NCBI GenBank assembly: GCA_002726235.1
Contig: PBSN01000003.1
Location: forward strand, 1 to 47,869
Reading direction: 5' to 3'
Length of the DNA: 47,869 bases
From: Nitrospiraceae bacterium
Lineage (GTDB): Bacteria > Nitrospirota > Nitrospiria > Nitrospirales > UBA2166
The translations under genes were made by a program, and so were the position numbers. The notes below the pieces were generated by a model. The model made no database searches, had not been told where the DNA came from, and saw nothing but the letters and a program-made list of their open reading frames with translations. This document shows positions 14,044 to 47,504 of the stretch, in pieces. Positions within the stretch are counted from its first letter, which is position 1. Each line of letters opens with the position of its first letter.

Positions 14044-15104
14044 TGATTTTCATTCGGCCTGCGACGCCTGAGGATTTGGATCAACTGGTTCAACTCGCAT
14101 CGATGACGGGGTTTGGTCTCAGCACACTTCCCCCGGATAAAGAGTACCTGGAAAAACGCCTTCACGAGGTCAATCAAAGTTTCGCTGAACTCATGAGTGG
14201 AGGGAAGGGGCAAACATTCCTGTTTGTGATGATCGAGGGAGAACAAGTCATTGGGACGTGTGGCATTGTGACAGGCGCTGGGGGGGCAATGCCGTTTTAC
14301 GCATATCGGATTGATACTATGCACGTTGAATCCACGGTGCTCAAAATCTGTAAGGCGATTAGGGTGCTCAATCTTGTCGATCACTACGAGAAATGCTGCG
14401 AGATAGGTAGCCTATTTTTGAGGCCGGACCACGCGGGAAAAGGATTACGTGGTCTTGGCCGGCTTCTGAGTTCATCCCGATTCCTCTTCATGGCTGAGCA
14501 CCTAGAGGCATTTGAGTCAGTGGTTATTGCCGAAATGCGTGGCGTTGTCGATGAGTGCGGGCAGTCCGCTTTTTGGGAATCTCTGGGACGCCATTTTTTT
14601 GACGTTGATTTTCCAAAAGCAGATTATTTGAGCATGAAGAACAAGACATTTGTATCCGAATTGATGCCACGTCATCCAATCTACCTCCCGTTACTTCCAG
14701 CGGAAGCACAAACTGTGATTGGACACGTTCATGAGAAAACGGTTCCGGCTCTGAGCCTTTTGCAATCGGAAGGGTTTGAGCCCACCAATATGGTGGATAT
14801 CTTTGAGGCTGGCCCCATCGTTCGTTGCGCGAAGGAGGAGGTTTTCACCGTAAGAGAATCGAGACGATCGACGATCGCAAAGGTGACGTCGGGTGAACCT
14901 GCGAACACACGTTGCCTCCTCAGTAATACCCAGCGAGAATTTCGTGCTTGTTTAGGTTCCATCGAGGAGGTCATTAACGGTGAAGTCCGAATAAGCCATC
15001 AGGTGGCATCTGCACTAAGGGTAAAAAAAGGGGATTGGATACGACATGCTCCCATTCCTTCTTCAAAACGACACATGCTTCATTCATCAACGGGAGTGAA
15101 GTGA
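14040..15104 (+). CDS. astA: Arginine N-succinyltransferase
   Basis: Start at 14040 or 14043; EIGSLFL, RLLSSSRFLF, VIAEMRGV, FWESLGRHFF, ELMPRHPIY, VDIFEAGP. Confidence 0.95.
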   Translation: MMIFIRPATPEDLDQLVQLASMTGFGLSTLPPDKEYLEKRLHEVNQSFAELMSGGKGQTFLFVMIEGEQVIGTCGIVTGAGGAMPFYAYRIDTMHVESTVLKICKAIRVLNLVDHYEKCCEIGSLFLRPDHAGKGLRGLGRLLSSSRFLFMAEHLEAFESVVIAEMRGVVDECGQSAFWESLGRHFFDVDFPKADYLSMKNKTFVSELMPRHPIYLPLLPAEAQTVIGHVHEKTVPALSLLQSEGFEPTNMVDIFEAGPIVRCAKEEVFTVRESRRSTIAKVTSGEPANTRCLLSNTQREFRACLGSIEEVINGEVRISHQVASALRVKKGDWIRHAPIPSSKRHMLHSSTGVK

Positions 15105-16570
15105 TGTCACATCTGTGCCATGTCATCGCGAACCACTGGGTTGCAGGGATTGGAAAAGAGTTTCTCTCGGTGAACCCTGCTTCGGGTGAAAAGATGTGGG
15201 AGGGAACAGCTGCAACGAAGGTCGAAGTTGAGCAGGCAGTGCAGGCAGCTCGAAAGGCAACGGTTTCGTGGGCCGCGATCAAGGTTCACGAACGGATGGC
15301 ATATCTTGAGACGTTCCGCGACAAACTGTCTGAACGAAAGGAACACTTCGTTCACGTTATATCACAGGACACTGGCAAGCCATTATGGGAATCTCGAACA
15401 GAAGTCGAAGCAATGGTGACAAAGATTGCACTATCAATACAGGCCTATGAGGAGTTCAGTCTTTCTTCTCGAAACGATTCTGCACAAGCGCGAGCATCGG
15501 TTCGACGAAAACCTCACGGAGTCGTCGCAGTACTCGGCCCATTCAACCTCCCTGGCCACCTTCCAAATGCTCATATGGTGCCCGCCTTGATTGCCGGTAA
15601 TACCGTTGTTTTCAAACCGAGCGAGTTGACGCCAGCAGTGGGGCGAGAGTTGGCAAAGCTGTGGCTCACCGCCGATCTTCCGGCAGGAGTTTTCAACATG
15701 GTTCAGGGGGGTGCCGAAACGGGCCGCTACCTGATCGAGCATCTCGGTATCAATGGAGTGTTCTTCACAGGAGGATATGACGCAGGAAGGTCCATCCATC
15801 TTGCACTTGCAGGTTCTCCAGAGAAGATTGTTGCCTTGGAGATGGGTGGGAACAATCCACTTGCTATTGCGAATGTGGATGATGTCGATGCTGCTGCCTA
15901 TTGGACAATTCAGTCGGCCTTTATCACATCAGGACAGCGTTGCACCTGTGCACGTCGCCTCATCGTCCTTGAGAACGAGAAAAGTGATCGATTTCTTGAC
16001 TGTCTCATTGGCATGATGAAAGGGATACGTATCGGTCCCTACACCACTGATCCGGAACCATTTATGGGACCGGTGATCTCCACGTGTGCAGCGGACAGAC
16101 TGCTGGGTGCACAGGANAGCTTATGCAAGCAAGGTGGGGTCTGTCTTGTCGAGATGAACCGTATGGATGGTGGCGCAATGCTGGTGCCCGGTCTGATCGA
16201 CATGACGTATGCGAAGCAACGATCGGATGATGAGTTATTTGGACCCCTCTTGCAGGTAGTTCGCGTACAGACATTTGAGCAACTTATCGCGGAGGCAAAT
16301 GAGACAGCTTACGGGTTGGCGGCAGGGATCTTCTCCGACGAACCAGCAATGTATGAGAAGTTCTATTGTGGCGTGCGTACTGGCATCGTGAATTGGAACT
16401 ATCCATTAACCGGCGCCAGTGGACGGATGCCCTTCGGAGGGATTGGGCGAAGTGGAAATTATCGACCGAGCGGGTACTATGCTGCCCAATACTGTTCCTA
16501 TCCTATCGCTTCTCTTGAACAACACCGGCTGGCGATGCCGAAAAACTTAACCCCTGGAATCTCATTGTGA
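15104..16570 (+). CDS. astD: Succinylglutamate-semialdehyde dehydrogenase
   Basis: ALDH with the AstD signature GPFNLPGHLPNAH, ALEMGGNNPL, SGQRCTCARR, GNYRPSGYYAAQYCSYP. Confidence 0.95.
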   Translation: MSHLCHVIANHWVAGIGKEFLSVNPASGEKMWEGTAATKVEVEQAVQAARKATVSWAAIKVHERMAYLETFRDKLSERKEHFVHVISQDTGKPLWESRTEVEAMVTKIALSIQAYEEFSLSSRNDSAQARASVRRKPHGVVAVLGPFNLPGHLPNAHMVPALIAGNTVVFKPSELTPAVGRELAKLWLTADLPAGVFNMVQGGAETGRYLIEHLGINGVFFTGGYDAGRSIHLALAGSPEKIVALEMGGNNPLAIANVDDVDAAAYWTIQSAFITSGQRCTCARRLIVLENEKSDRFLDCLIGMMKGIRIGPYTTDPEPFMGPVISTCAADRLLGAQXSLCKQGGVCLVEMNRMDGGAMLVPGLIDMTYAKQRSDDELFGPLLQVVRVQTFEQLIAEANETAYGLAAGIFSDEPAMYEKFYCGVRTGIVNWNYPLTGASGRMPFGGIGRSGNYRPSGYYAAQYCSYPIASLEQHRLAMPKNLTPGISL

Positions 16571-17916
16571 ATATAGCCGCGTGGGAGGTGAATTTTGACG
16601 GGCTTTCCGGGCCGACTCATTCCTACGGAGGCCTTTCGTATGGGAATATTGCATCCATGAAGAATCGACTCAGCGCCTCAAATCCCAAAGCGGCCGCTCT
16701 TCAGGGTTTAAAAAAAATGAAGCTACTCCATGATTTCGGTATTAAGCAGGGCATTCTGCCTCCGCATGAACGGCCTGATTTTAACATGCTAAGACGGTTA
16801 GGATTTGCTGGCACCGAGGCGGAAATATTGGAGAAATCCAGCCGAGCAGATATGCAACTTCTTCTCGCATGTTTTAGTTCATCGGGGATGTGGGCTGCCA
16901 ATGCAGCCACGGTGTCACCGAGTTCGGACACTCGTGATGGACGGGTCCATTTCACCCCTGCAAACCTGGTCAGTGAGTTTCACCGGTCCATTGAAGCGCC
17001 CTTCACTGGACGTGTGTTAAGGAGGATTTTCCACGACGACAGACATTTTTCTCACCACGCGCCAATTCCAGGGAGCCTTTGTTTTTCGGACGAAGGTAGC
17101 GCAAACCATCTGCGCCTTTGTCGATTGTACAATGAACCAGGGCTTGAGATATTCGTCTATGGCCGTGAAGCCTTAAGTTTGGGAGATAGATATCCGACCG
17201 CGTATCCAGCTCGTCAGACAAGAGAAGCATCAATGGCCGTAAAACGCCTGCACGAATTGCGTGATGATGCCACCCTTGTCACTCAACAGAATCCTGTGGC
17301 GATCGACCAAGGGGTCTTTCATAATGATGTCATTTGCGTTGGGGATCGGAATTTGCTGTGGTATCACGCGGATGCGTTTTTAGATGGCCCAGGCACAATT
17401 TCTAGTATCCGGAGGATATGTGCTGAACACTACGACATCGAGCTGAATGCTATTAAAATTACAGACCGACAACTGCCGATCGATCAAGCCGTCCAATCCT
17501 ATATCTTTAACAGCCAACTGGTGACGCTACCTGATCAGTCGCAATATCTCATCGCGCCCTCTCGGTGTTGCGAGATTGCCTCAGCTCGGGCATGTATTAA
17601 TGCGCTTGTGGATGATAGTGGAATTCAGCATGTGTGCTATGTTGATCTCGAACAGAGCATGCTCAATGGCGGTGGGCCTGCCTGCCTACGGCTTCGCGTT
17701 GTCCTGACGGATGAGGAACTGGCTCATGTGCATGAGAATGTGATACTGACCGAATTGCGCTATGAGTGTTTGGTGGGTTGGGTCAGCCGGAATTTTCGTG
17801 ATCGTCTCCACATTGACGACCTTGCAGACCCACTTTTTTTGACGGAATGCCAGAAAACATTGGATGAACTAACTGCGATTTTGGACCTTGGTTCACTATA
17901 CGAGTTTCAACGGTAA
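16567..17916 (+). CDS. astB: N-succinylarginine dihydrolase
   Basis: EVNFDGLSGPTHSYGGLSYGN, SGMWAANAATVSPS, GVFHNDVI, SMLNGGGPACLRLRV. Confidence 0.97.
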   Translation: MNIAAWEVNFDGLSGPTHSYGGLSYGNIASMKNRLSASNPKAAALQGLKKMKLLHDFGIKQGILPPHERPDFNMLRRLGFAGTEAEILEKSSRADMQLLLACFSSSGMWAANAATVSPSSDTRDGRVHFTPANLVSEFHRSIEAPFTGRVLRRIFHDDRHFSHHAPIPGSLCFSDEGSANHLRLCRLYNEPGLEIFVYGREALSLGDRYPTAYPARQTREASMAVKRLHELRDDATLVTQQNPVAIDQGVFHNDVICVGDRNLLWYHADAFLDGPGTISSIRRICAEHYDIELNAIKITDRQLPIDQAVQSYIFNSQLVTLPDQSQYLIAPSRCCEIASARACINALVDDSGIQHVCYVDLEQSMLNGGGPACLRLRVVLTDEELAHVHENVILTELRYECLVGWVSRNFRDRLHIDDLADPLFLTECQKTLDELTAILDLGSLYEFQR

Positions 17917-17984: not shown

Positions 17985-19883
17985 ATGAACGAACTGGAAT
18001 TGCTTCGCGCGGTCCTTAATTCANCCACAGACGCTATTTGCCTTGTTGGGCATGATCGAAAATTGAAGGTGAGCAATCCTGCCTACGACAAGATTCTCGT
18101 GCATGTGGGTGTTCTGGATGAAGAAGATTGGGAGGCCAGCACGTGCTTCCTCACCGATGACGTCATACGAAAAGTCTCGACAGATTACGAAGATACCAAA
18201 CAGGTTGCAGACCGAATGATCCAATGGTTGGACTCTCAGGAATGCCACTGGGACACGGTTNGCCAGTCTGATGGACGCGTCTTTCAGCGACGGTGTATTC
18301 CTATTCCCAACCATGGCCATTTGTTCATCACCCAAGATATTACTTCTCATGTTCAGGAAAAGGCACGATATCAGACGTTACTACAAATCAACAACGCCCT
18401 AGTCTTGAAACTTGACAAAGATGCCTTGTTTCACGCAGTGGCTGAGGAAATACATCGTGTTGCGGCATTCGATCAGGCCGGCATCACGGTCTATGACCCC
18501 GTAGCAGACAAGTTTTTTATCTATGTTCTCGAGGCAACCACCTCCAAGCGCCATCTGAAACGCGGGATGGAGATTCCTCATGTCGGTAGTGCCATGGGCT
18601 GGGCGATGGATCATCGAACTCCCTGCGTTCGATCCGATCTGTCAGCCGTGAGAGACTTTTTTGAGGATGATTTGTTTTATCGCGAAGGTCTACAATCGGC
18701 CGTGAGCATTCCCATGCAATTCGACGAAACCGTTCTGGGGACGTTTACTGTTGCAAGCCGAGAGCCGAGACATTTTTCGGACACTCACATCAAGTTCCTT
18801 ACTGATATGGCTGTACAGATGGCCATCGCCTTTCGAAATGTGAATTGTGTTCAGGATGTTGAGCACACGAAGGTCCAGCTACATAACCAGACGATATATC
18901 TGAAGCAGGAGGTTGAGGAGAAAGGGCATTTTTCTGCAATTGTTGGTGATAGTCAAGCTTTGAAACCCATGCTCTCCAATATAGAGACCGTTGCACCGAC
19001 AGATTCGACGGTGCTGATTCTGGGGGAGACTGGAACAGGGAAGGAACTCGTTGCGCGGGCGATTCATGCAGAGAGTGCGCGCAAGGCCGGTCCTATGGTC
19101 ACGGTCAACTGCGGGGCGGTGCCAGCGGGGTTGCTTGAAAGTGAGATGTTTGGACACGAGCGTGGTTCGTTCACCGGTGCTTTATCAAGGAAAATCGGCC
19201 GTTTCGAAGTAGCTCAAGGTGGGACTATCTTTCTGGATGAGGTCAGCGAGCTTCCGCTTGAGCTTCAGGCCAAGTTGCTCAGGATCGTGGAGGAGCAAAC
19301 CTTTGAGCGTCTTGGTAGTACTGAAACCCACCGTCTGAATGTTCGTATTATTGCGGCAACCAATTGCGATCTTGGTGCGGCGGTCACGGCTAAGACGTTT
19401 CGTGAAGATCTCTTTTACCGTATCAATGTTTTTCCTGTTCACGTACCTTCACTCAGGGAACGGAAGGACGACATTCCATTACTCACCCGTTACTTCGTCA
19501 CGAGATTTATGAGGAAGATGAATAAACGCATTGATGAGGTCGATCCCAAGGCGATGGAACAGTTGTCTCAGTACCATTGGCCTGGCAATGTTCGAGAATT
19601 GCTTCATGTTCTGGAGCGGGCTGTGATTCTCTGCAACGGACCCACCCTTGTGTTGCCGGATGATTTCACAGGGATGCCGATGTTAGAAGATAAAGGGCTA
19701 CGGCCTCACGCTCTGTTAACGTTGGAACAGATGGAACGGGAATACATTGTTGAAACTCTAGAGAAAACCTTCTGGGCGATTGGGGGAGCTAAAGGTGCGG
19801 CGAAAATTCTTGGTCTCCATCCCAATACCCTCCGAAGTCGGATGGAGAAACTCGGAATAAGAAAGACTACCCACTCCTCCTAA
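17985..19883 (+). CDS. Sigma-54 enhancer-binding activator, FhlA-like (PAS-like, GAF, AAA+, HTH)
   Basis: GETGTGKELVARAIH, ESEMFGHERGSFTGA, FLDEVSEL, WPGNVREL; FhlA-type HTH GGAKGAAKILGLHPNTLRSRMEKLGI. Confidence 0.93.
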   Translation: MNELELLRAVLNSXTDAICLVGHDRKLKVSNPAYDKILVHVGVLDEEDWEASTCFLTDDVIRKVSTDYEDTKQVADRMIQWLDSQECHWDTVXQSDGRVFQRRCIPIPNHGHLFITQDITSHVQEKARYQTLLQINNALVLKLDKDALFHAVAEEIHRVAAFDQAGITVYDPVADKFFIYVLEATTSKRHLKRGMEIPHVGSAMGWAMDHRTPCVRSDLSAVRDFFEDDLFYREGLQSAVSIPMQFDETVLGTFTVASREPRHFSDTHIKFLTDMAVQMAIAFRNVNCVQDVEHTKVQLHNQTIYLKQEVEEKGHFSAIVGDSQALKPMLSNIETVAPTDSTVLILGETGTGKELVARAIHAESARKAGPMVTVNCGAVPAGLLESEMFGHERGSFTGALSRKIGRFEVAQGGTIFLDEVSELPLELQAKLLRIVEEQTFERLGSTETHRLNVRIIAATNCDLGAAVTAKTFREDLFYRINVFPVHVPSLRERKDDIPLLTRYFVTRFMRKMNKRIDEVDPKAMEQLSQYHWPGNVRELLHVLERAVILCNGPTLVLPDDFTGMPMLEDKGLRPHALLTLEQMEREYIVETLEKTFWAIGGAKGAAKILGLHPNTLRSRMEKLGIRKTTHSS

Positions 19884-19944
19884 CGACACCATTTCGCGGT
19901 CCTCCGTAGCTTCTTTGGATGACTGTAGTATAGCTAAATCATCC

Positions 19945-20134
19945 TTAAACTGGCCTCTCCGGTTTATTGTCCGCGGTATACACCTCGGCACAACGATCAC
20001 AGAGTCCATCTGATGGAAAGCAGGAAGGAAATTCCGCATGGATCTCCCCCTGTACGGCCTCTGGCAACGAGCTGGACTCAACTCACACATGTGACGGGAA
20101 CTCACACACGGCCACATGAGACAGCGCTGCGCCC
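19945..20134 (-). pseudogene. 3' remnant of a gene encoding a CxxC...CxxC (Zn-finger-like) C-terminus
   Basis: Minus strand reads SC/AVCEFPSHV*VESSSLPEAVQGEIHAEFPSCFPSDGLCDRCAEVY...*, with one frameshift and a TGA at 20083-20085 where Trp (TGG) would fit. Confidence 0.5.
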
Positions 20135-20236
20135 TCTGTTTTCCAATACTCGAGTCAGACACAAGTAGTAATACATGTGAAGGAGGTCAGCCCTCCCAAT
20201 GTCGTTGTCAATTAGGGCGCTATCCTTGTTTTTCAC
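20102..20236 (-). pseudogene. Alternative or truncated 2-oxoacid dehydrogenase E1-alpha N-terminus (44 aa)
   Basis: GAGGAGAGG RBS then GTG at 20236; [34 protein letters not shown] aligns with E1-alpha [22 protein letters not shown]. Confidence 0.8.
20135..20192. repeat. Left arm of 58-bp inverted repeat (partner 20933-20990)
   Basis: 20141-20188 is the exact reverse complement of 20937-20984 (48 bp); 56 of 58 match when extended. Confidence 0.95.
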
Positions 20237-20298
20237 ATCGCACACCTCTCCTCAAAGCAATACAATCCGAATAATCCCACCCACTTCTCTCTATGTGA

Positions 20299-20328
20299 AC
20301 GACATATCGGCATTGGCACGATATGTCG
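20299..20328. promoter_or_regulatory. Putative upstream activator sequence, tandem ACGA-N4-TCG
   Basis: CGACATATCG-N9-CGATATGTCG (also a perfect 10-bp inverted repeat), about 80 bp upstream of a -24/-12 promoter. Confidence 0.7.
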
Positions 20329-20406
20329 AAACTCGTATCGCTCAGCTGGAATAGCGCGTTTCCCAAAATTGCGCGGAAAACAGCTCATTTCTTGTGTGTA
20401 GGATGC

Positions 20407-20422
20407 TGGTATCGGCATTGCT
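20407..20422 (+). promoter_or_regulatory. Sigma-54 -24/-12 promoter of the STAS-BCKDH-icm operon
   Basis: TGGTATCGGCATTGCT (GG-N10-GC, TTGCT). Confidence 0.75.
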
Positions 20423-20504
20423 TTTCCTCTCCATGATGTGAGAAGCGGGTAGCTTCTGTATCTGAGAAAGAGCGTCTCCGTACGCGTTGTAGGCGGCGGG
20501 TAGC

Positions 20505-20792
20505 ATGTTGCGAGTTACAGCGAAAGGTAAAACAAAAAATGCTAACACTGTCCGCCTTGTTCTGGAGGGACAGCTTCGAGGGGACTGGTGTGCCATGCTT
20601 GAGCAGGTATGCCACGAGTTTCTCGGACAAGGTGTGGTAGTGACCATGGATATGTCTGGCGTGAGCTATGTCGATGACCGTGGCGTGAGATTGCTCAAAG
20701 AGCAACTAGCTAGTCGCACCACTATTATCGGGTGCAACATGTTTGTCCAGGCGCTCATTGAGCGTAAACCTGTTGTGGAACAGGAATATTAA
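20505..20792 (+). CDS. Stand-alone STAS-like domain protein
   Basis: 95 aa; LVLEGQLRG.W...L...VTMDMSGVSYVDDRGVRLL matches the STAS DLSxVxFxD pattern. Confidence 0.75.
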   Translation: MLRVTAKGKTKNANTVRLVLEGQLRGDWCAMLEQVCHEFLGQGVVVTMDMSGVSYVDDRGVRLLKEQLASRTTIIGCNMFVQALIERKPVVEQEY

Positions 20793-20840
20793 AAATTAAG
20801 AATCGGAAGAAGGTTAGTTTTGGTATGCGGAGGGGAAATC

Positions 20841-21899
20841 ATGGACAATTCGAAAGGATCAATCACGTTACCTCTAGCCACAGGAGAGGGCTCAGACGTT
20901 GGCGAAGCTCCTGTTGCTTGCCAGATCGGACAGGCGGACCTCCTTCACATGTATTACTACTTGTGTCTGACTCGAGTATTGGAAGACAGAATCACAACTC
21001 TGTATCGGCAAGGGGTAATTTTGGGTGGGGTGTATACGAGCAATGGCATGGAAGCGATTAGCGTTGGATATGCCTCTGCTCTGGAACGAGACGATGTCAT
21101 TGCCCCATACCATCGAGATATGGGTGCATTCCTAGTTCGTGGAATCACGCCATATGATGTAGTGACTCAATATTTAGGCAGACGGACAAGTCCCACCAAA
21201 GGCAAGGATGGCAATGTCCACATCGGAGATCTAAAACGAGGCATTGTCGCGTTTGTCAGTCACCTTGCGGATAATCTTCCAGTTGCCACTGGTGTAGCAC
21301 TCGCCTTCAAAATTCGTGAAGAGCCTCGTGTCGTTGCGACCAACACGGGGGATGGTGGAACGAGTCGGGGCGATTTCCATGAAGCTATGAATTTTGCCGC
21401 AGTACGCAAACTTCCCGTGGTCTTTTTCTGCAACAACAATCAATTTGCCTACTCAACTCCGTTGCAATGGCAGATGGCAATTCCCAACGTGGCGGATCGA
21501 GCGAAAGCATATGGGATGCCCAGTGAGATTGTGGATGGGAATAATGTGGCCACTGTATACCTAGCTGCTAAGCGGGCAGTTCACCGTGCTCGGAGCGGAG
21601 ATGGCCCGACCTTTATTGAGTGTAAGACGATGCGCATGCATGGGCACTCCGAGCACGACTCGGCCAAGTACGTTCCGAAGGAATTATTGGAGGAGTGGAA
21701 GAAGAAGGACCCGATCTTGAAGGCAGAGCAATTACTCCTGCAATGTGGCTATGCCGATGAAGCGTCGTTCTGCGATGTTAGGGAAAGGATCAGGGCAGAG
21801 GTCGAGGCTGCAGTAGAGTACGCCAAACAAAGCCCCCTCCCTGATGGAGCGGACGTGCACGAAGGTGTTTTTGCGAATGAGGGTGAGGTGCAACCATGA
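20841..21899 (+). CDS. TPP-dependent 2-oxoacid (probably branched-chain) dehydrogenase E1 alpha
   Basis: ATG at 20841 after [22 protein letters not shown]...[10 protein letters not shown] motif, RMHGHSEHD. Confidence 0.92.
20933..20990. repeat. Right arm of 58-bp inverted repeat, inside the E1-alpha coding sequence
   Basis: Reverse complement of 20135-20192 with 2 mismatches. Confidence 0.95.
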
Positions 21900-26270: not shown

Positions 26271-27422
26271 GTGGATTTCGAGCTGACCAAAGAACAGAAG
26301 ACCCTTCACGACATGATCCGCGATTTTGTTGCGAAGGAGATCGCTCCACACGCTCAGACTTTTGATGAACAAGGTGCGATATCAAAGGATCTGTTGGAGA
26401 AGATGGCAAAACTTGGCCTGATGGGAATCTGCGTCCCTTCAGAGTATGGCGGGGCAGGGATGGATTATCTGGCCTACGTCATCGTCTTAGAAGAAGTTTG
26501 CAAAGCCTCCGCGAGTGTAGGTTTGGCCATGACCGTGAACAATACGCTCTACGGCGATCCTCTCATGCGTTTTGGATCTCATGAACAAAAGCTTCGGTGG
26601 CTGGCCCCAGCCGCCAAGGGAGAGCGTTTGGGATGCTATGCCCTCACTGAGTCAGGTTCCGGATCGGATGCGATGGCGTTGGGTACCTCAGCGATTCAGG
26701 GTGACGATGGATTTGTTCTCAATGGGACGAAGCTGTTTATTACAAACGGTGAGATTTCCTCACAGGCAATCGTTTTCGCCACTATGGACAAGAGCAAGAG
26801 CCACAAAGGGATTACGGCCTTCCTTGTGGACAAGGCTACTCCAGGCTTCTCGGTAGGAAAGAAGGAACGAAAGATGGGACTGCTCGCCTCTGATACCTGT
26901 GAGCTGATTCTGGAGAATGTATCTGTTCATTCAGAGCAGGTTTTGGGCAATGTAGGCGAGGGCTACAGGGTCGCATTCTCGACGTTGGATGCGGGGCGAA
27001 TTGGGATTGCAGCGCAGGCGTTGGGCATCGCCCAAGCTTGTCTCGATGCCGCGATCCCCTACGCCAAGCGGCGCTATCAATTTGGTAAGCCAATCGCAGA
27101 ATTTCAAGCGATCCAGTGGAAATTGGCTGACATGGCTACGGAGATCGAAGCGGCACGCCTGCTTACCTATCGAGCCGCAGTGGTCAAAACAACCGGCCAG
27201 CAACGCTTCACTCGTGAGGCCTCAATGGCCAAGCTCTACGCCTCCGAGATGGTCAATCGGGTGGCTTCACACGCGATTCAGGTTTTCGGGGGGGCTGGCT
27301 ATATGAAGGACCATCCTGTCGAGCGATACTTCAGAGATGCCAGAGCCATCCCACTCTATGAAGGGACGTCTGAGATACAGCGCCTCGTCATCGCGCGAGA
27401 CCTTCTGAGAGAGGTGAAGTAA
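26271..27422 (+). CDS. Short/branched-chain acyl-CoA dehydrogenase
   Basis: YALTESGSGSDA, GTKLFITNG, RYQFGKPIAEFQ, LYEGTSEIQRLVIAR. Confidence 0.93.
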   Translation: MDFELTKEQKTLHDMIRDFVAKEIAPHAQTFDEQGAISKDLLEKMAKLGLMGICVPSEYGGAGMDYLAYVIVLEEVCKASASVGLAMTVNNTLYGDPLMRFGSHEQKLRWLAPAAKGERLGCYALTESGSGSDAMALGTSAIQGDDGFVLNGTKLFITNGEISSQAIVFATMDKSKSHKGITAFLVDKATPGFSVGKKERKMGLLASDTCELILENVSVHSEQVLGNVGEGYRVAFSTLDAGRIGIAAQALGIAQACLDAAIPYAKRRYQFGKPIAEFQAIQWKLADMATEIEAARLLTYRAAVVKTTGQQRFTREASMAKLYASEMVNRVASHAIQVFGGAGYMKDHPVERYFRDARAIPLYEGTSEIQRLVIARDLLREVK

Positions 27423-29017
27423 TGCAAGAGTGCCCTTCGAGAGTTACATCTCTATCTGGGTTGGAAATTGATCAAGTGTATTCAACCGATGTCCTCAAGG
27501 GCTGGGCCGCCGACACAGACCTCGGAAACCCAGGCGCATTTCCGTATACCCGTGGGCTCTATTCGGCTATGTATCGGCGTCGACTGTGGACAATGCGCCA
27601 ATTCGCCGGATTCGGTACGGCTAACGATACCAACCGCCGAATGAAGTATCTCCTCAAACACGGCCAAACCGGTCTCAGTGTCGCCTTTGACATGCCCACA
27701 CTCATGGGCTTGGATGCAGATGATTCCCTCGCACGCGGTGAAGTAGGACGCTGTGGTGTGACAATCTCATCTTTGAGCGACATGGAATCTCTTTTTGAGA
27801 ACATCCCGTTGGACAAAATCACCACGTCGATGACCATCAATGGGCCTGCCGCCATCATATTTGCCATGTACCTCGCAGTGGCGGAGCGACGCGGAATTCC
27901 GTTTGAGCGACTTGGGGGCACACTTCAGAACGATATTCTCAAAGAATATATTGCTCAGAAAGAGTGGCTGTTCGCACCAGAACCGCACATTCGGTTAATC
28001 ACCAATACGATTGCCTATTGTGCTCAACATGTTTGGAAGTGGCATCCGGTCAGTATCAGTGGTTACCACATTCGCGAGGCCGGATCGACAGCAGTTCAGG
28101 AATTGGCGTTTACTCTCTACAACGGGCTCACATATGTGGATGCTACGGTCAATGCCGGCCTTGCCGTGGATGCTTTCGCTCCTCAGCTTTCATTTTTCTT
28201 CAACGTTCACAACGATTTTTTTGAAGAAATAGCGAAGTTCAGAGCAGCTCGTCGATTGTGGGCACGTGAGATAGAGCGACGCTACCATCCGAAGGATCCG
28301 CGCTCTCTCCAGCTCCGTTGCCACGCCCAGACTGCCGGGTGTTCCCTTACGGCGCAACAGCCGATGAACAACGTGGTGAGGGTCAGCCTCCAAGCGCTCG
28401 CCGCGGTGTTGAGTGGGACCCAATCTCTCCACACGAATTCTCTGGATGAGACGCTAGCGTTGCCGACCGAAGGAGCAGTGAAGTTGGCACTTCGGACGCA
28501 GCAGATTATTGCCAATGAGAGTCATGTCATCAACACCGTGGACCCTCTCGGCGGCTCCTACTATATCGAATCGTTAACCAATCGCATGGAAGCAGGGGCC
28601 CGTGAGTACTTCAAGAAGATTGATGACATTGGTGGGATGGTAAAGGCCATCGAACGCGGCTTTCCACAACGGGAAATTTTCGAGGCCTCACATCGATATC
28701 AACAGGAAGTGGAGCAGAACGAACGAAGCATTGTCGGGGTCAACGCATTCGTTGACGATGTGCCATGCTCGGTCCCGACCCTCAAGATTCACCCTGAGGT
28801 GGAATTGGAACAGGTGACGCGTCTTTCTGAGTTGCGAAAAAGCCGAGACGCCGTGCGAGTTGCTGACACCCTGCGGAAGTTGCACAAAGCTGCGATCACG
28901 TCTGAGAATCTGATGCCCTATCTCATCGACGCGGTCAAATCCTATGCGACTCTGGGCGAGATCTGCGGAAGGCTCAAGGAGGTGTTCGGGACGTATTCCG
29001 AACCGATTGTACTGTGA
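27422..29017 (+). CDS. icmA: Acyl-CoA mutase large subunit, isobutyryl-CoA mutase type
   Basis: WTMRQFAGFG (Phe, where MCM has Tyr), QNDILKEYIAQKEW, SISGYHIREAG; no B12-binding domain. Confidence 0.85.
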   Translation: MQECPSRVTSLSGLEIDQVYSTDVLKGWAADTDLGNPGAFPYTRGLYSAMYRRRLWTMRQFAGFGTANDTNRRMKYLLKHGQTGLSVAFDMPTLMGLDADDSLARGEVGRCGVTISSLSDMESLFENIPLDKITTSMTINGPAAIIFAMYLAVAERRGIPFERLGGTLQNDILKEYIAQKEWLFAPEPHIRLITNTIAYCAQHVWKWHPVSISGYHIREAGSTAVQELAFTLYNGLTYVDATVNAGLAVDAFAPQLSFFFNVHNDFFEEIAKFRAARRLWAREIERRYHPKDPRSLQLRCHAQTAGCSLTAQQPMNNVVRVSLQALAAVLSGTQSLHTNSLDETLALPTEGAVKLALRTQQIIANESHVINTVDPLGGSYYIESLTNRMEAGAREYFKKIDDIGGMVKAIERGFPQREIFEASHRYQQEVEQNERSIVGVNAFVDDVPCSVPTLKIHPEVELEQVTRLSELRKSRDAVRVADTLRKLHKAAITSENLMPYLIDAVKSYATLGEICGRLKEVFGTYSEPIVL

Positions 29018-29856
29018 GACTTGGTGCATTTGACATTCATCCGGTCACGGATGGTCGATTTCGCCTCGATGGCGGAGCCATGTTCGGGACCGTGCCACGG
29101 GTGTTGTGGGAGCAATTCTGTCCAGCCGATGACCGGCACCGCATTCAGTTAAGTGTGACGCCTTTGCTCATCAAAGCCAATGGGAAAAACATTCTCGTGG
29201 ATACTGGCTTGGGGGATAAAGACGATGCGAAATTTCAAGAAATGTTTGCGGTGGATCGGGTTCCTCCTCTCTATGAATCGTTGAGCCGATTGGATCTTAC
29301 TCCCGAGGACATTGACATTGTCATTAATACGCATTTGCATTTCGATCATGCCGGAGGAAACACTGTAGAGGGCCAGAATTCTGGCATCGTTTCTGCCTTC
29401 CCGAAGGCTACCTATTGTGTCCAACGTGGAGAGTATGACGATGCGATTCAGGCCAACGAACGGACCAGGGCGAGCTACCGGCAGCAGAACTTTGTTCCGG
29501 TTACCCAAATGAATCAATGGGCATTGCTGGACGGCAATACCGAATTGTTACCAGGGATCTCGGTTGTTGTGACTCAGGGACACACCACTCATCACCAGAG
29601 TGTGAAGATTGAGTCGGAAGGACGCATCGCCTTTTACCTTGGAGATCTAATTCCGACCGTCTCTCATCTGCCGCTTTCGCACATTATGGGCTATGACCTC
29701 TTTCCTTTGCAGACATTAGAGACTAAGCGATGGGTTCTTGATCGCGCGTTTGAGGAAACTTGGCTCATGGTTTTCGATCACGATCCGCATGTCCAAATAG
29801 GCTATGTGCGTAAAGATGGCGATGGGAAACTTAGGTTCGAAGAGGCAAAGGAATGA
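29014..29856 (+). CDS. MBL-fold metallo-hydrolase (YtnP-like)
   Basis: [28 protein letters not shown]. Confidence 0.9.
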
Positions 29857-30254
29857 CCGTGGCAACGCTACCTCTTCGCGTATTGCTTGGAAAGGTTGGT
29901 CTGGACGGGCATGACCGAGGGATCAAGTTGGTCGTCCGGGCACTCCGCGATGCCGGCATGGAAATTATTTATTGTGGTCTGCACCAGACTCCGGAAGAGG
30001 TTGTGGCGACGGCCATTCAGGAAGACGTGCAGGTAATCGGCCTGAGCCTGTTGTCTGGTGCCCATCACTACCTTTTGCCACGCGTGCTGGCCCTCTTGAA
30101 AGAACAGGGCGCGGACGACATTGCGGTCATCGCAGGAGGCATCATTCCAGATGAGGATATCCCGATGCTCAAGAACGCCGGCATACGCATGATCTTCCAA
30201 CCTGGGACACCTATGAGTGAGATCGTCGATTCGGTGAAAGGGCTCAAGGAATGA
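29853..30254 (+). CDS. icmB: Cobalamin-binding small subunit of acyl-CoA mutase
   Basis: [10 protein letters not shown] (DxHxxG), [14 protein letters not shown]. Confidence 0.88.
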
Positions 30255-31534
30255 GACCGGTCTACATGATCAGTGGCGGAATCACCAAGTTTGCCAAGGC
30301 ACATATCAACAAAGACTTTCGATTGATGGTCAAAGAGGCGTATGACTATGCCTTGCGTGATGTGCCGCGATTCTCAAAAGATATGATTGATGGGGCCGTT
30401 GGGTCCTATTTCTCTGACCACTTCACGAGGCAATTGAAAGCTGCCAGCATGGTGCAGGATTACCTTGGACTCTGTCCCAAGCCATCGAAGAGAGTCGAGG
30501 GAGGAGGCGCCACGGGGGGACTTTGTTTTCAGTCGGCTTGGGAGGCGATTGCGTCTGGGCGGATGAACTGCTGTTTGGCCTTTGGGTTCGAAACCATGTC
30601 GAGGGTCAATACCTGGAAGGGAAACGAATTCATCGCGCTGGCATCGGATACAAACTTTGATTTTCCTGTGGGGGGGTTTTACTCGGGCTATTACGCGATG
30701 ATGGTCCAGCGTCATATGTACGAATTTGGGACAACCGTTGAACAGTTGGCGATGGTGTCGGTTAAGAATCATGTCAATGCGCTATGCAATCCTTATGCCC
30801 AGAAGGCCAAGCGGCTCTCGGTAAAGCAAGTAAGGGAGTCACCGATGGTCGCCACGCCGCTGACAATGGAGGACATCTGCACGATGTCGGATGGGGCGGC
30901 GACGTGCATCCTGGCTTCTGAGGAGCTTGCAGCAAAGGTGTGCGATCGTCCCGTAAGGATTGCCGGGGTAGGATCTGGCTCGGATACGATGCGGATGGCT
31001 GATCGTCCTCATGACAAAGTGATGCTCCTGCCGCATGAGCAAGAATCGGATTATCTTCACCTTCGGTATCCTGGAGTCCATTCCTTTCGGGGAGGTCGGA
31101 TGGCCGGAAAGCTTGCCTATGAGATGGCAGGTATTAGGAATCCACTCGAGGAACTGAGTTTTGTCGAACTTCACGATGCCTACACCTCGTCGGAGATTCA
31201 GACCTATGAGGATCTCGGATTATGCAAATATGGAGAAGGCGGGCGCTTTGTGGAGAGTGGTGCGCCATTCATGGCAGATGTGAACTACGGACTCGATATA
31301 CCAAAGGCAGGACGTCTGCCGGTCAATCCTTCGGGAGGGCTGTTGGCTTGTGGGCACCCGGTGGGCGCGACAGGGCTGATGCAAGCTGTGTTTGCCTTCT
31401 GGCAACTGCAGGGAACAACTAGCAAACACCTTGGAGACGACACGTTGCAGGTGCAACAGGCCAAACGCGGATTGATTCATAGCCATGCGGGTACTGGAAC
31501 ATATATCACCGTTTCCATTTTGGAGGCCACATGA
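30251..31534 (+). CDS. SCP2-type thiolase-like protein lacking the N-terminal catalytic Cys
   Basis: [10 protein letters not shown] at the usual CxS site; [23 protein letters not shown]. Confidence 0.85.
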
Positions 31535-32010
31535 AGAGAGGCATTCATATGCACGCACAGGGATCCGTTCTCTTGGGTGTCGATCCATTGGTCTTGCTCG
31601 ATCATTACGAGATCGACTATCACCACAGCTATGCCCAAGACTCGCCATTCTTTGTTGGTCTGAGCAAAAAGAAACTCCTCGGCTCGTGCTGTACGGAATG
31701 TGGATACATCTACGCGACCCCTCGGTCTCATTGTATGGAGTGTGGAGCTGCAACAGATTGGTGCGAACTACCATTAACAGGCCGAGTTCACACGTTCACC
31801 ACCTGTTATTTTGGAGGTGAAGTCTTTCTTGACGAAACCCCGTTTACATTAATCCTTGTGGAGTTCGACGGCGTTGATTCGTTGTTTCTGGCTAGACTGA
31901 AAGGCATGGAACCGTCGACTGTCCACATCGGTTTGCCGGTAGTTGCTCGTTTTGCCAAGACTCCATCGTTTAAGGTGACCGATGTGTGGTTCGAGCACAC
32001 CCACAGGTAA
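31531..32010 (+). CDS. DUF35 Zn-ribbon/OB-fold protein
   Basis: CTECG...PRSHCMECG zinc ribbon followed by OB-fold; overlaps the thiolase-like gene. Confidence 0.9.
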   Translation: MKRGIHMHAQGSVLLGVDPLVLLDHYEIDYHHSYAQDSPFFVGLSKKKLLGSCCTECGYIYATPRSHCMECGAATDWCELPLTGRVHTFTTCYFGGEVFLDETPFTLILVEFDGVDSLFLARLKGMEPSTVHIGLPVVARFAKTPSFKVTDVWFEHTHR

Positions 32011-32746
32011 AGAACCATTAACCCCAGACGTATTAGCCGAACGGGTTAAAAATGGGGACATCCGAGCCATCGCTTGTGTGATCACGGCGCTCGAAAGGCA
32101 CGAGCCTCTTGGAAGTATGACCTTGGGACTCCTTGATACAAACACGCGATGCTCATCGGTGATTGGGGTGACGGGCTACCCGGGTGCAGGAAAGAGTACA
32201 TTAATTGATCAACTTGCGAAGGCGTACAGGCGGCAGGGGGAAAAGGTTGGGATTATTGCGGTAGATGCGACGAGCCCGTTGACAGGAGGAGCCCTTCTCG
32301 GCGACCGCATTCGTATGCAGCAACACACGCAAGATCTCGGGGTCTTCATCCGAAGTATGGCCACGCGTGGTCAACACGGAGGTCTTGCACCCTCAACATA
32401 CAAGGCAGTGCGGGTGTTAGAAGCAGCTGGCTATGGGGTGATTTTTGTTGAGACCGTGGGCGTGGGGCAAGATGAAGGGGACATCACTCATGTCGTCCAG
32501 ACCGTCGTGGTTGTTGTGGCTCCAGGGTTGGGGGACGAAGTACAGGCGATGAAGGCTGGTTTGTTTGAAATCGCACACATCGTTGTTGTGAACAAAGGTG
32601 ATCGTGAGGGGGCAGATACGACCGTGCGAGAACTGCAACAATGGCTTCCTCAAGTTCTCCGCGCAGTGGCCTTAAAAAGCGGCGGTATTTCCGAACTTGT
32701 TGAAGCGATCGAGAGTCATCAACGACAGGGCATGGTGCCTCCATGA
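31982..32746 (+). CDS. meaB: MeaB/ArgK G-protein chaperone of acyl-CoA mutase (short form, start uncertain)
   Basis: GYPGAGKST, GGALLGDRIRM, FIRSMATRG, ETVGVGQ, NKGD. Confidence 0.9.
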   Translation: MCGSSTPTGKEPLTPDVLAERVKNGDIRAIACVITALERHEPLGSMTLGLLDTNTRCSSVIGVTGYPGAGKSTLIDQLAKAYRRQGEKVGIIAVDATSPLTGGALLGDRIRMQQHTQDLGVFIRSMATRGQHGGLAPSTYKAVRVLEAAGYGVIFVETVGVGQDEGDITHVVQTVVVVVAPGLGDEVQAMKAGLFEIAHIVVVNKGDREGADTTVRELQQWLPQVLRAVALKSGGISELVEAIESHQRQGMVPP

Positions 32747-40093: not shown

Positions 40094-40109
40094 AGCAATT
40101 TGTGTACCA
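40094..40109 (-). promoter_or_regulatory. Sigma-54 promoter of the ETF-QO operon
   Basis: Minus strand TGGTACACAAATTGCT. Confidence 0.78.
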
Positions 40110-40405: not shown

Positions 40406-40421
40406 TGGTACGAACTTTGCT
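40406..40421 (+). promoter_or_regulatory. Sigma-54 promoter of the prpD operon
   Basis: TGGTACGAACTTTGCT. Confidence 0.8.
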
Positions 40422-47488: not shown

Positions 47489-47504
47489 AGCAATCGCCGT
47501 ACCA
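47489..47504 (-). promoter_or_regulatory. Sigma-54 promoter of citrate synthase
   Basis: Minus strand TGGTACGGCGATTGCT. Confidence 0.78.

Follow-up and report, generated by a model that had tools for sequence, protein, structure and literature searches.

An inverted repeat linking an orphan gene start to the first gene of a branched-chain catabolic operon in a marine Nitrospiraceae genome: possible traces of a past homologous inversion

Contig PBSN01000003.1 of a Nitrospiraceae bacterium (assembly GCA_002726235.1) shows an inverted repeat at the head of a 13-kb catabolic operon. One arm lies inside the first gene, which encodes the E1-alpha subunit of a branched-chain 2-oxoacid dehydrogenase, and the other lies in a short, opposed open reading frame (ORF) upstream. 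This locus raises the question of whether the 740 nucleotides (nt) between the arms form a segment that still flips, one that turned round in the past, or one that has never moved. The window analyzed here is the whole contig (C3; 47,869 nt), and the genome to which it belongs is a 1.87-Mb metagenome-assembled draft of 27 contigs with 90.65% completeness. A previous sequence-only reading of this DNA proposed a shufflon-like or phase switch and named, among its alternatives, a scar homogenized by a past inversion. This alternative comes closest to the explanation favored here, in which a past homologous inversion set a sigma-54 promoter before the operon, in an orientation that has since become fixed or almost fixed. 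The explanation is put forward tentatively, with a likelihood judged to lie a little short of even. The homogenization of the arms is borne out by the comparisons below; that an inversion took place, beyond gene conversion, and in which direction, is what we infer. The coordinates of the features are collected in Table 1.

The two arms comprise 58 nt each, with 56/58 positions (97%) complementary, and their core of 48 nt contains no mismatch. The exact reverse complementarity of the core and its extension to 56/58, both described in the sequence-only reading, are reproduced by a repeat search, and the core is reproduced also by independent contigs assembled at k=31. The two mismatches are located near the ends of the arm, a placement that is not unusual (∼0.08). 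On the minus strand, the left arm encodes the 19 residues of the right arm save for one D-to-N change. An extension of the repeat to 70 nt is ruled out by the 12 nt beyond the arm, of which just 6 are identical. The previous description of the codons just inside the repeat as differing mostly synonymously needs correction, as it concerns only four codons, situated partly within the arm. The repeat is present in its own genome in these two copies only, and a self-comparison of the whole genome yields 22 inverted pairs in total, with this one as the sole pair within 5 kb.

Independent DNA assemblies reproduce the repeat. In runs X1 and X2, which stem from two studies, the k=31 contigs of the flanks end exactly 30 nt into each core (positions 20170, 20159, 20966, and 20955). 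A separate 48-nt contig corresponds to positions 20937 to 20984 and is deeper, at 11 versus 5 to 10.3 in X1 and 29.4 versus 13 to 16.2 in X2. All four arm-flank junctions are found in X1 and X2 with no or one other letter, and three are found in run X5; each of these runs differs from the window at one place, in no case within the arms. The reproduction of the four junctions in independent runs indicates that the repeat is no assembly chimera, and the assembly or amplification chimera earlier named as a possible refutation is thereby set aside. The window occurs in metagenome runs from marine, seawater, or hydrothermal-vent sources. Contigs with k=31 (X1, X2, and X5) are blind to orientation since both isomers share all 31-mers; any such graph must break 30 nt into the cores, and neither the break nor the lack of reported joints and loose ends says anything on flipping.

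The left copy is a complete gene start typical of the family. Its minus-strand ORF consists of 15 N-terminal residues, the arm, 10 unrelated codons, and a stop codon. The 44-codon frame with its ribosome site, its GTG start, and a second, shorter N-terminus, as read from the sequence alone, withstands comparison with the family. E1-alpha proteins of relatives carry a methionine 12 residues ahead of the conserved stretch encoded by the arms, and conservation with relatives opens at the right arm, where their DNA matches begin at positions 20934 to 20937. A profile was built from 34 distinct N-termini with the methionine exactly 12 residues ahead, the shorter anammox-type starts being left out, and was set against a null of 66,284 11-mers from the six frames of the window. 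The left copy scores 8.42, a value reached by a fraction of 9.05e-5 of the nulls (8.6e-3 for positions 2 to 8 alone), and is thus family-typical by this profile. The right copy scores −2.52, reached by 4.57e-3 of the nulls (4.2e-2 for positions 2 to 8 alone), and its N-terminal stretch is 9 nt shorter. As a side observation on the same stretch, an imperfect 12-nt inverted repeat (83%; 20227-20238 and 20293-20304) surrounds the ribosome site of the orphan start and a sigma-70-like site.

Both copies share the ribosome-binding-type 8-mer in register, which 653 of 20,000 shuffles match. In the right copy, the codon at the place of the relatives' start is GTT, which is no start codon, so ATG 20841, preceded by a GGAGGGG site, must serve as the start of E1-alpha; the only other in-frame canonical start upstream is TTG 20820. 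The upstream ATG now in use adds 16 residues. The profile fit, the ribosome site, and the contrast of GTG with GTT indicate that the orphan represents the canonical start and that the start in use is the more decayed one. In the family, the length from the conserved methionine has a median of 333 amino acids (aa), with 333 aa in 49 and 332 aa in 18 of 77 complete ORFs, a set which includes three outliers of 62, 101, and 314 aa. When the flip is computed, a 336-aa E1-alpha with an identical tail results, and the long N-terminus becomes a 60-aa fragment. The computed flip thus agrees with the earlier statement that a crossover in the arms would fuse the short N-terminus to E1-alpha in frame and turn the sigma-54 promoter away from the operon; the STAS gene would turn with it. 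Apart from this, the public gene call P0007 (316 aa) opens at an internal methionine and loses residues conserved in all relatives.

The arms and their flanks differ in apparent age. Over 19 shared codons, the two copies are alike at 55/57 nt and at 18/19 third positions. The right copy compared with 113 distinct sequences of relatives shows agreement at 30 to 42 of the 57 nt (median, 37) and at 3 to 12 of the 19 third positions (median, 7). The likeness of the arms exceeds coding constraint, which indicates that they were copied or converted within the genome recently. In the 11 codons ahead of the arms, the copies agree at 3/11 residues and 14/33 nt, and relatives among themselves show a median of 5/11 residues over 11 N-terminal codons (56 distinct peptides). 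By this measure, the flanks appear to differ as much as those of different genera. Wider flank homology in 138-nt local alignments is at chance level, with 831 and 1491 of 2000 shuffles reaching the observed scores. Old flanks together with young arms argue for recombination between the arms, an event which these comparisons indicate to be recent. One sequence cannot tell conversion alone from conversion with crossover.

The segment between the arms carries the regulatory features that had been reported from it, namely, the activator site, the sigma-54 promoter, and the STAS gene, recovered here as a palindrome, a −24/−12 match, and a 95-aa ORF. The predicted sigma-54 features comprise the GG/GC −24/−12 element with canonical spacing, the upstream palindrome, which is likely the activator (enhancer) site, and a neighboring activator gene whose product contains a sigma-54 interaction domain. 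The −24/−12 pattern is matched 4 times in the window versus 0.18 expected, and 0/100 shuffles reach 4. The match of the 95-aa gene to STAS_2 in Pfam (22.1 bits) is under the cutoff of 29.2. A sigma-70-like site on the minus strand aims at the orphan start and would face E1-alpha after a flip; such sites number 2 in the region versus 1.4 expected, which is not above chance. Elsewhere in the window, the other sigma-54-type matches are located at 40094-40109 (minus strand), 40406-40421 (plus strand), and 47489-47504 (minus strand), and the two at ∼40.1 to 40.4 kb face each other's flanks. Judging from these patterns, the contig may hold several sigma-54 transcription units.

The mechanism favored here would start from two head-to-head copies of the E1-alpha 5′ end, each with a ribosome site, a start, an N-terminus, and the first conserved helix. 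Homologous recombination of the RecA type would keep the conserved 58-nt part alike. At a fairly recent time, a crossover between the arms would have turned the 740-nt segment round, bringing the STAS gene and the sigma-54 promoter with its enhancer site to the front of the catabolic operon and leaving the canonical start behind, facing backwards. The present orientation would now be fixed or overwhelmingly dominant, with the arms still serving as a possible substrate for rare homologous flips. A past inversion would account for an orphan that is better preserved than the start in use, for the young arms, and for the single orientation observed.

Table 1. Features at and around the inverted repeat (positions in the window)
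Feature	Position	Strand	Remarks
Sigma-54 enhancer-binding activator gene, 632 aa	17985-19883	+	PAS, GAF, AAA+ sigma-54 interaction domain, Fis-type HTH
Orphan E1-alpha gene start	20102-20236 (44 codons, GTG 20236); 20102-20245 (47 codons from GTG 20245)	-	
Inverted repeat, left arm	20135-20192 (exact core 20141-20188)		
Ribosome-binding-type 8-mer AGGAGAGG	20245-20252	-	8 nt ahead of GTG 20236
Sigma-70-like promoter candidate, TTCACA, 17 nt, GATTAT	20271-20299	-	9/12 matches; TG before -10
Perfect 10-nt palindrome CGACATATCG N9 CGATATGTCG	20300-20328		79 nt upstream of -24 element
Sigma-54-type -24/-12 promoter (predicted), TGGTAT N5 TTGCT	20407-20422	+	Pattern match
Small STAS-like gene, 95 aa	20505-20792	+	First gene of sigma-54 transcript; STAS_2, 22.1 bits
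E1-alpha gene, branched-chain 2-oxoacid dehydrogenase, 352 aa	20841-21899	+	31-residue N-terminus precedes arm
Putative fossil gene start inside E1-alpha: AGGAGAGG, 8 nt, GTT	20882-20900	+	GTT where relatives' start codon sits
Inverted repeat, right arm	20933-20990 (exact core 20937-20984)		Codons 31-50 of E1-alpha

Several points weigh against a past inversion. No inversion has been seen directly, past or present, and gene conversion without crossover would homogenize the arms too. The right flank shows only weak signs of being an old gene start, with probabilities of ∼0.03 for the 8-mer in register and ∼0.04 for positions 2 to 8. The operon promoter before the flip would be the sigma-70-like candidate with its 9/12 matches, in a region that holds no more of these sites than chance would give. 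The intact ribosome site, start, and ORF of the orphan could equally mean that selection still acts on it, be it part of the alternative state of a switch or a small gene. A minority of flipped cells is compatible with the data, in which 31-mers are shared and assemblies stand for majorities. The origin of the first inverted duplication is left unexplained by the inversion. The locus resembles the concerted evolution of short inverted repeats through gene conversion and evolutionary inversions with flanking inverted duplications (Ranz et al. 2007, PMC1885836), with near-identical inverted copies between differing flanks and a duplicated breakpoint piece bounding the inverted segment. The staggered-break model was developed on Drosophila chromosomes (Ranz et al. 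2007, PMC1885836). The flanks here suggest that both copies are old gene starts, for which a single staggered-break event is insufficient.

The alternative that survives best is a working two-state switch, in which the segment would flip reversibly at a meaningful rate via RecA or a distant tyrosine recombinase; on present evidence it is unlikely. State 1 would combine control by sigma-54 and the activator with coexpression of STAS and the long-N E1-alpha. State 2 would combine a sigma-70-type promoter with the canonical 336-aa E1-alpha, STAS being transcribed away from the operon. The in-frame flip with a protein of family length, the intact and family-typical orphan start, the recently homogenized arms, and the sigma-70-like site just upstream of the orphan ribosome site all speak for a switch. 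It is opposed by the missing flipped form among public gene calls, by the single orientation of the assembly, and by an RNA contig in the reference form only. The more specific proposal that a recombinase-free or distantly served switch heads the branched-chain operon of a streamlined marine Nitrospirales bacterium, with selection for both states keeping the starts and the core, is marginally more doubtful still. The geometry of the shufflon-like or phase switch of the sequence-only reading stands, in the in-frame flip, the typical orphan start, and the recombined arms, and its activity is at most putative, with no flipped form found.

The public data on orientation are as follows. Contig ends of the draft overlap by 99 nt, which suggests that the last word of the assembler, at ∼99 nt, exceeded the arms in length, and the contig passes through the two arms in a single orientation. 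The E1-alpha cluster at 90% identity comprises 6 distinct members from at least 19 contigs. These are the long-N form of 352 aa (13 contigs), a variant of it with one residue changed (1 contig), a call of 316 aa from an internal methionine (2 contigs), and three fragments. The short N-terminus occurs in none of the 6 members, and both full-length forms (14 contigs) are long. When the small ORF was used to seek longer proteins, as a fused flipped form would be, this E1-alpha cluster and nothing else came back, and residues 1 to 60 of E1-alpha compared with 5.8 billion proteins likewise returned this cluster alone. Assemblies show the majority orientation only, and the samples from which the contigs of the protein cluster derive may be related to each other. 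In the RNA of run X16, an unbroken 1119-nt contig extends in the reference form from position 20846 through the right arm past 21200, which places the long-N form in RNA, and a contig of the same run spans the STAS gene at 20502-20742. Positions 19762 to 20501, including the left arm, are uncovered by X16 contigs, and this gap carries no evidence.

The recombinase inventory also tells against a switch. The statement that the window lacks a recombinase gene is upheld, with no tyrosine, serine, or IS110-type match on the contig. In the draft genome, at 90.65% completeness, the tyrosine recombinase family PF00589 shows 3 matches, all on other contigs, whereas the serine recombinase (invertase) family PF00239 and the IS110/Piv-type family PF01548 show none; RecA is present. 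The repeat pair is alone of its kind in the genome, which argues against an invertase regulon. There is no dedicated invertase and no sign of programmed, frequent switching.

The nearest counterparts among known systems are gene-altering inversions. Excerpts of Milman et al. 2023 (PMC9881135) link these to a repeat of at least 44 bp, a distance between coding sequences (CDSs) of at most 2588 bp, and the pairing of a long with a short CDS. The present locus, with a core of 48 nt, an arm of 58 nt, starts ∼600 nt apart, and CDSs of 44 to 47 versus 352 codons, lies within these attributes (PMC9881135), which counts for a switch, as does the existence, reported in the same excerpts, of invertible regions without a nearby recombinase gene (PMC9881135). 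As in the gene-altering inversions and partial intergenic invertons covered by excerpts of PMC9881135 and of the preprint by Chanin et al. (PMC10028968), one arm is located in a CDS and its partner in a short, silent, opposed copy, and a flip swaps homologous gene ends in frame. In contrast, the inversions in these excerpts are defined by observed variants, usually with a recombinase gene near, neither of which is found here, and they mostly swap specificity domains with the promoter fixed, whereas here the 5′ end of the gene and the promoter would change together (PMC9881135, PMC10028968). Since no recombinase is near and no variants were found, the locus is a candidate for gene-altering inversions and not a member. 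The usual targets of such inversions differ from a catabolic enzyme, the target here. To our knowledge, phase variation does not usually act on catabolic operons of free-living marine bacteria with a 1.9-Mb genome, which likewise disfavors a switch.

Invertible promoter switches offer a further comparison. Unlike these, the "off" state here would keep a possible second promoter facing the operon. The sap locus of Campylobacter fetus reportedly inverts a single promoter between the conserved 5′ regions of opposed homologous genes in a RecA-dependent manner and without an invertase. Its partners are said to be full-length surface-protein genes with repeats of hundreds of bases, with variants arising in culture and infection. 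The present locus differs from this account in its 44-codon stub partner, its 58-nt arms, and the lack of a variant found. Another invertible promoter switch is fimS. In the flagellar H1/H2 segment of Salmonella, according to excerpts of PMC10028968, a promoter lies between inverted repeats, and the way it points determines the genes that it transcribes, as would be the case here. The repeats of the H1/H2 type are short sites for a dedicated recombinase in these excerpts, whereas those of the present locus are 58-nt coding pieces and no invertase is found (PMC10028968).

Somewhat less probable than a switch is a dead-end duplication of part of the gene in reverse, with no inversion at any time. 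The 5′ end would have been copied to a place upstream in the opposite direction, the resident N-terminus would have been altered in place, and one or more later conversions would have refreshed the 58 nt. The right copy fits this course in keeping AGGAGAGG, 8 nt, and GTT in register together with a weak profile fit, and the single orientation seen is as expected. A dead copy whose N-terminal codons differ from the live ones at 19/33 nt should not, however, have its start, ribosome site, open frame, and family-typical N-terminus in a better state than those of the live gene. In addition, conversion and crossover arise from the same recombination intermediates, which also counts against this course.

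An antisense element is improbable. Here, plus-strand RNA through the left arm, either read through from the activator gene or made as a separate RNA, would pair over 58 nt with codons 31 to 50 of E1-alpha and couple the RNA levels of activator and operon. The complementarity of 56/58 favors pairing, and no terminator-like site is found from the activator stop (19883) to the left arm, the sole site of this kind in the region being at 20402-20419. Selection for pairing would hardly account for the perfect 48-nt core, single mismatches being cheap, and the ribosome site, start, and N-terminus of the orphan on the other strand would go unexplained. A scan against Rfam yields no family match, and the fold of the intergenic RNA is not unusual (z = −1.1; 12/100 shuffles fold at least as well).

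Less probable again is a small gene of 44 to 47 codons whose peptide would mimic the first helix of E1-alpha and influence how the dehydrogenase is assembled or regulated. In its favor are the open frame with its start and ribosome site, and the promoter-like site upstream. The translation of 20102-20245 is absent from a collection of 15 billion proteins in an exact-sequence lookup, in which GTG may have been read as V. No relative is found among 1.84 billion representatives, and the ORF matches no Pfam family. The one match among the representatives, P0012 (696 aa; ∼11 tandem units of 50 to 60 residues), is spurious and of low complexity; it is ruled out as a relative by its repetition and a CLTRVLE-like word. 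An assembly or amplification chimera, for which the draft nature of the metagenome-assembled genome might speak, is hardly credible in view of the junctions in X1, X2, and X5, of arms differing at 2/58 places between unique flanks, and of an identical STAS protein on 24 contigs and an identical E1-alpha on 13.

The genus mates G001 to G004 contain no ortholog of E1-alpha (best match, 31%), of the activator (best match, 48%, in the AAA part only), or of STAS. The STAS family is matched in 150/401 genomes of the order at 25 to 42% identity, a tally which takes in two genomes flagged as unpublished (G280 and G394). The close STAS relatives P0002 to P0005, with 66 to 77% identity, are found only on unbinned contigs of 576 to 1590 nt. 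The closest E1-alpha loci are those of Nitrospirales and Nitrospira genomes, followed by anammox planctomycetes. In the Nitrospira-type relatives, the region upstream of E1-alpha shows glyoxalase-type, homogentisate-dioxygenase-like, and fumarylacetoacetase genes and an unassigned 293-aa gene. STAS or the activator is present within 3 to 4 kb upstream at 0/160 E1-alpha loci, and an inverted copy of the E1-alpha 5′ end is present at 0/177 foreign loci (97 + 80). This indicates that the regulatory module and the repeat are particular to this species. Nothing credible was found in 19884-20940 as a remnant of the relatives' upstream genes (best tblastx E value of 0.003 among 84 queries).

Other inverted repeats at relatives' loci (L011, L035, L074, L077, L087, L090, L105, L165, L177, and L189) are placed elsewhere. 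At L011 (genome G031), GC-rich palindromic elements of ∼40 nt occupy both gaps around the gene upstream of E1-alpha (590-640 and 1405-1460); they look like REP-type repeats unrelated to the inverted repeat of the window. L077, a metagenome contig of 3086 nt, shows a 40-nt inverted repeat (97.5%) between positions 1 to 40 and 1098 to 1137, just past E1-alpha, which is probably a fold-back assembly artifact.

In Pfam, the activator matches Sigma54_activat (5.1e-69), GAF (3.8e-11), HTH_8 (1.3e-7), and PAS_7 (7.8e-6), and E1-alpha matches E1_dh (PF00676) at 7.3e-75 with 252.1 bits versus a cutoff of 22. E1-alpha is followed by E1-beta of the transketolase type, a lipoyl E2 (2-oxoacid_dh), a thiolase, hydroxyacyl-CoA and acyl-CoA dehydrogenases, and a B12 mutase set. 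The latter region (27422-32746) contains a 531-aa large subunit of the methylmalonyl-CoA mutase type, a separate 133-aa B12-binding subunit, a MeaB-type GTPase, and a gene with a metallo-beta-lactamase fold, a layout that suggests an acyl-CoA mutase step within branched-chain catabolism. Directly upstream of the activator (15035-17916), genes for an aldehyde dehydrogenase and a succinylarginine dihydrolase (AstB) are located, so a set of arginine-catabolic genes adjoins the branched-chain operon. The overlaps of contig ends are often of exactly 99 nt with 100% identity and make contigs linkable, as in the case of C3:47771-47869 and C17:1-99; an internal 99-nt match (C3:2710-2808 and C17:38902-38804) hints at a repeat or an unresolved branch.

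For annotation, the locus shows that the public call P0007 truncates conserved residues of E1-alpha. If the past inversion is true, the locus offers a clean case from nature in which one homologous flip has rewired regulation. The operon would have shifted from sigma-70-type control to control by sigma-54 and the activator, and its first enzyme would have gained an N-terminal extension, with the old gene start remaining as a fossil that can be dated. Were the segment still to flip, gene-altering inversions would extend from host-associated surface and defense genes to central catabolism, in a free-living marine relative of nitrite oxidizers without a dedicated invertase. As a switch, the locus could allow a subpopulation to use branched-chain substrates without the signal of the activator.

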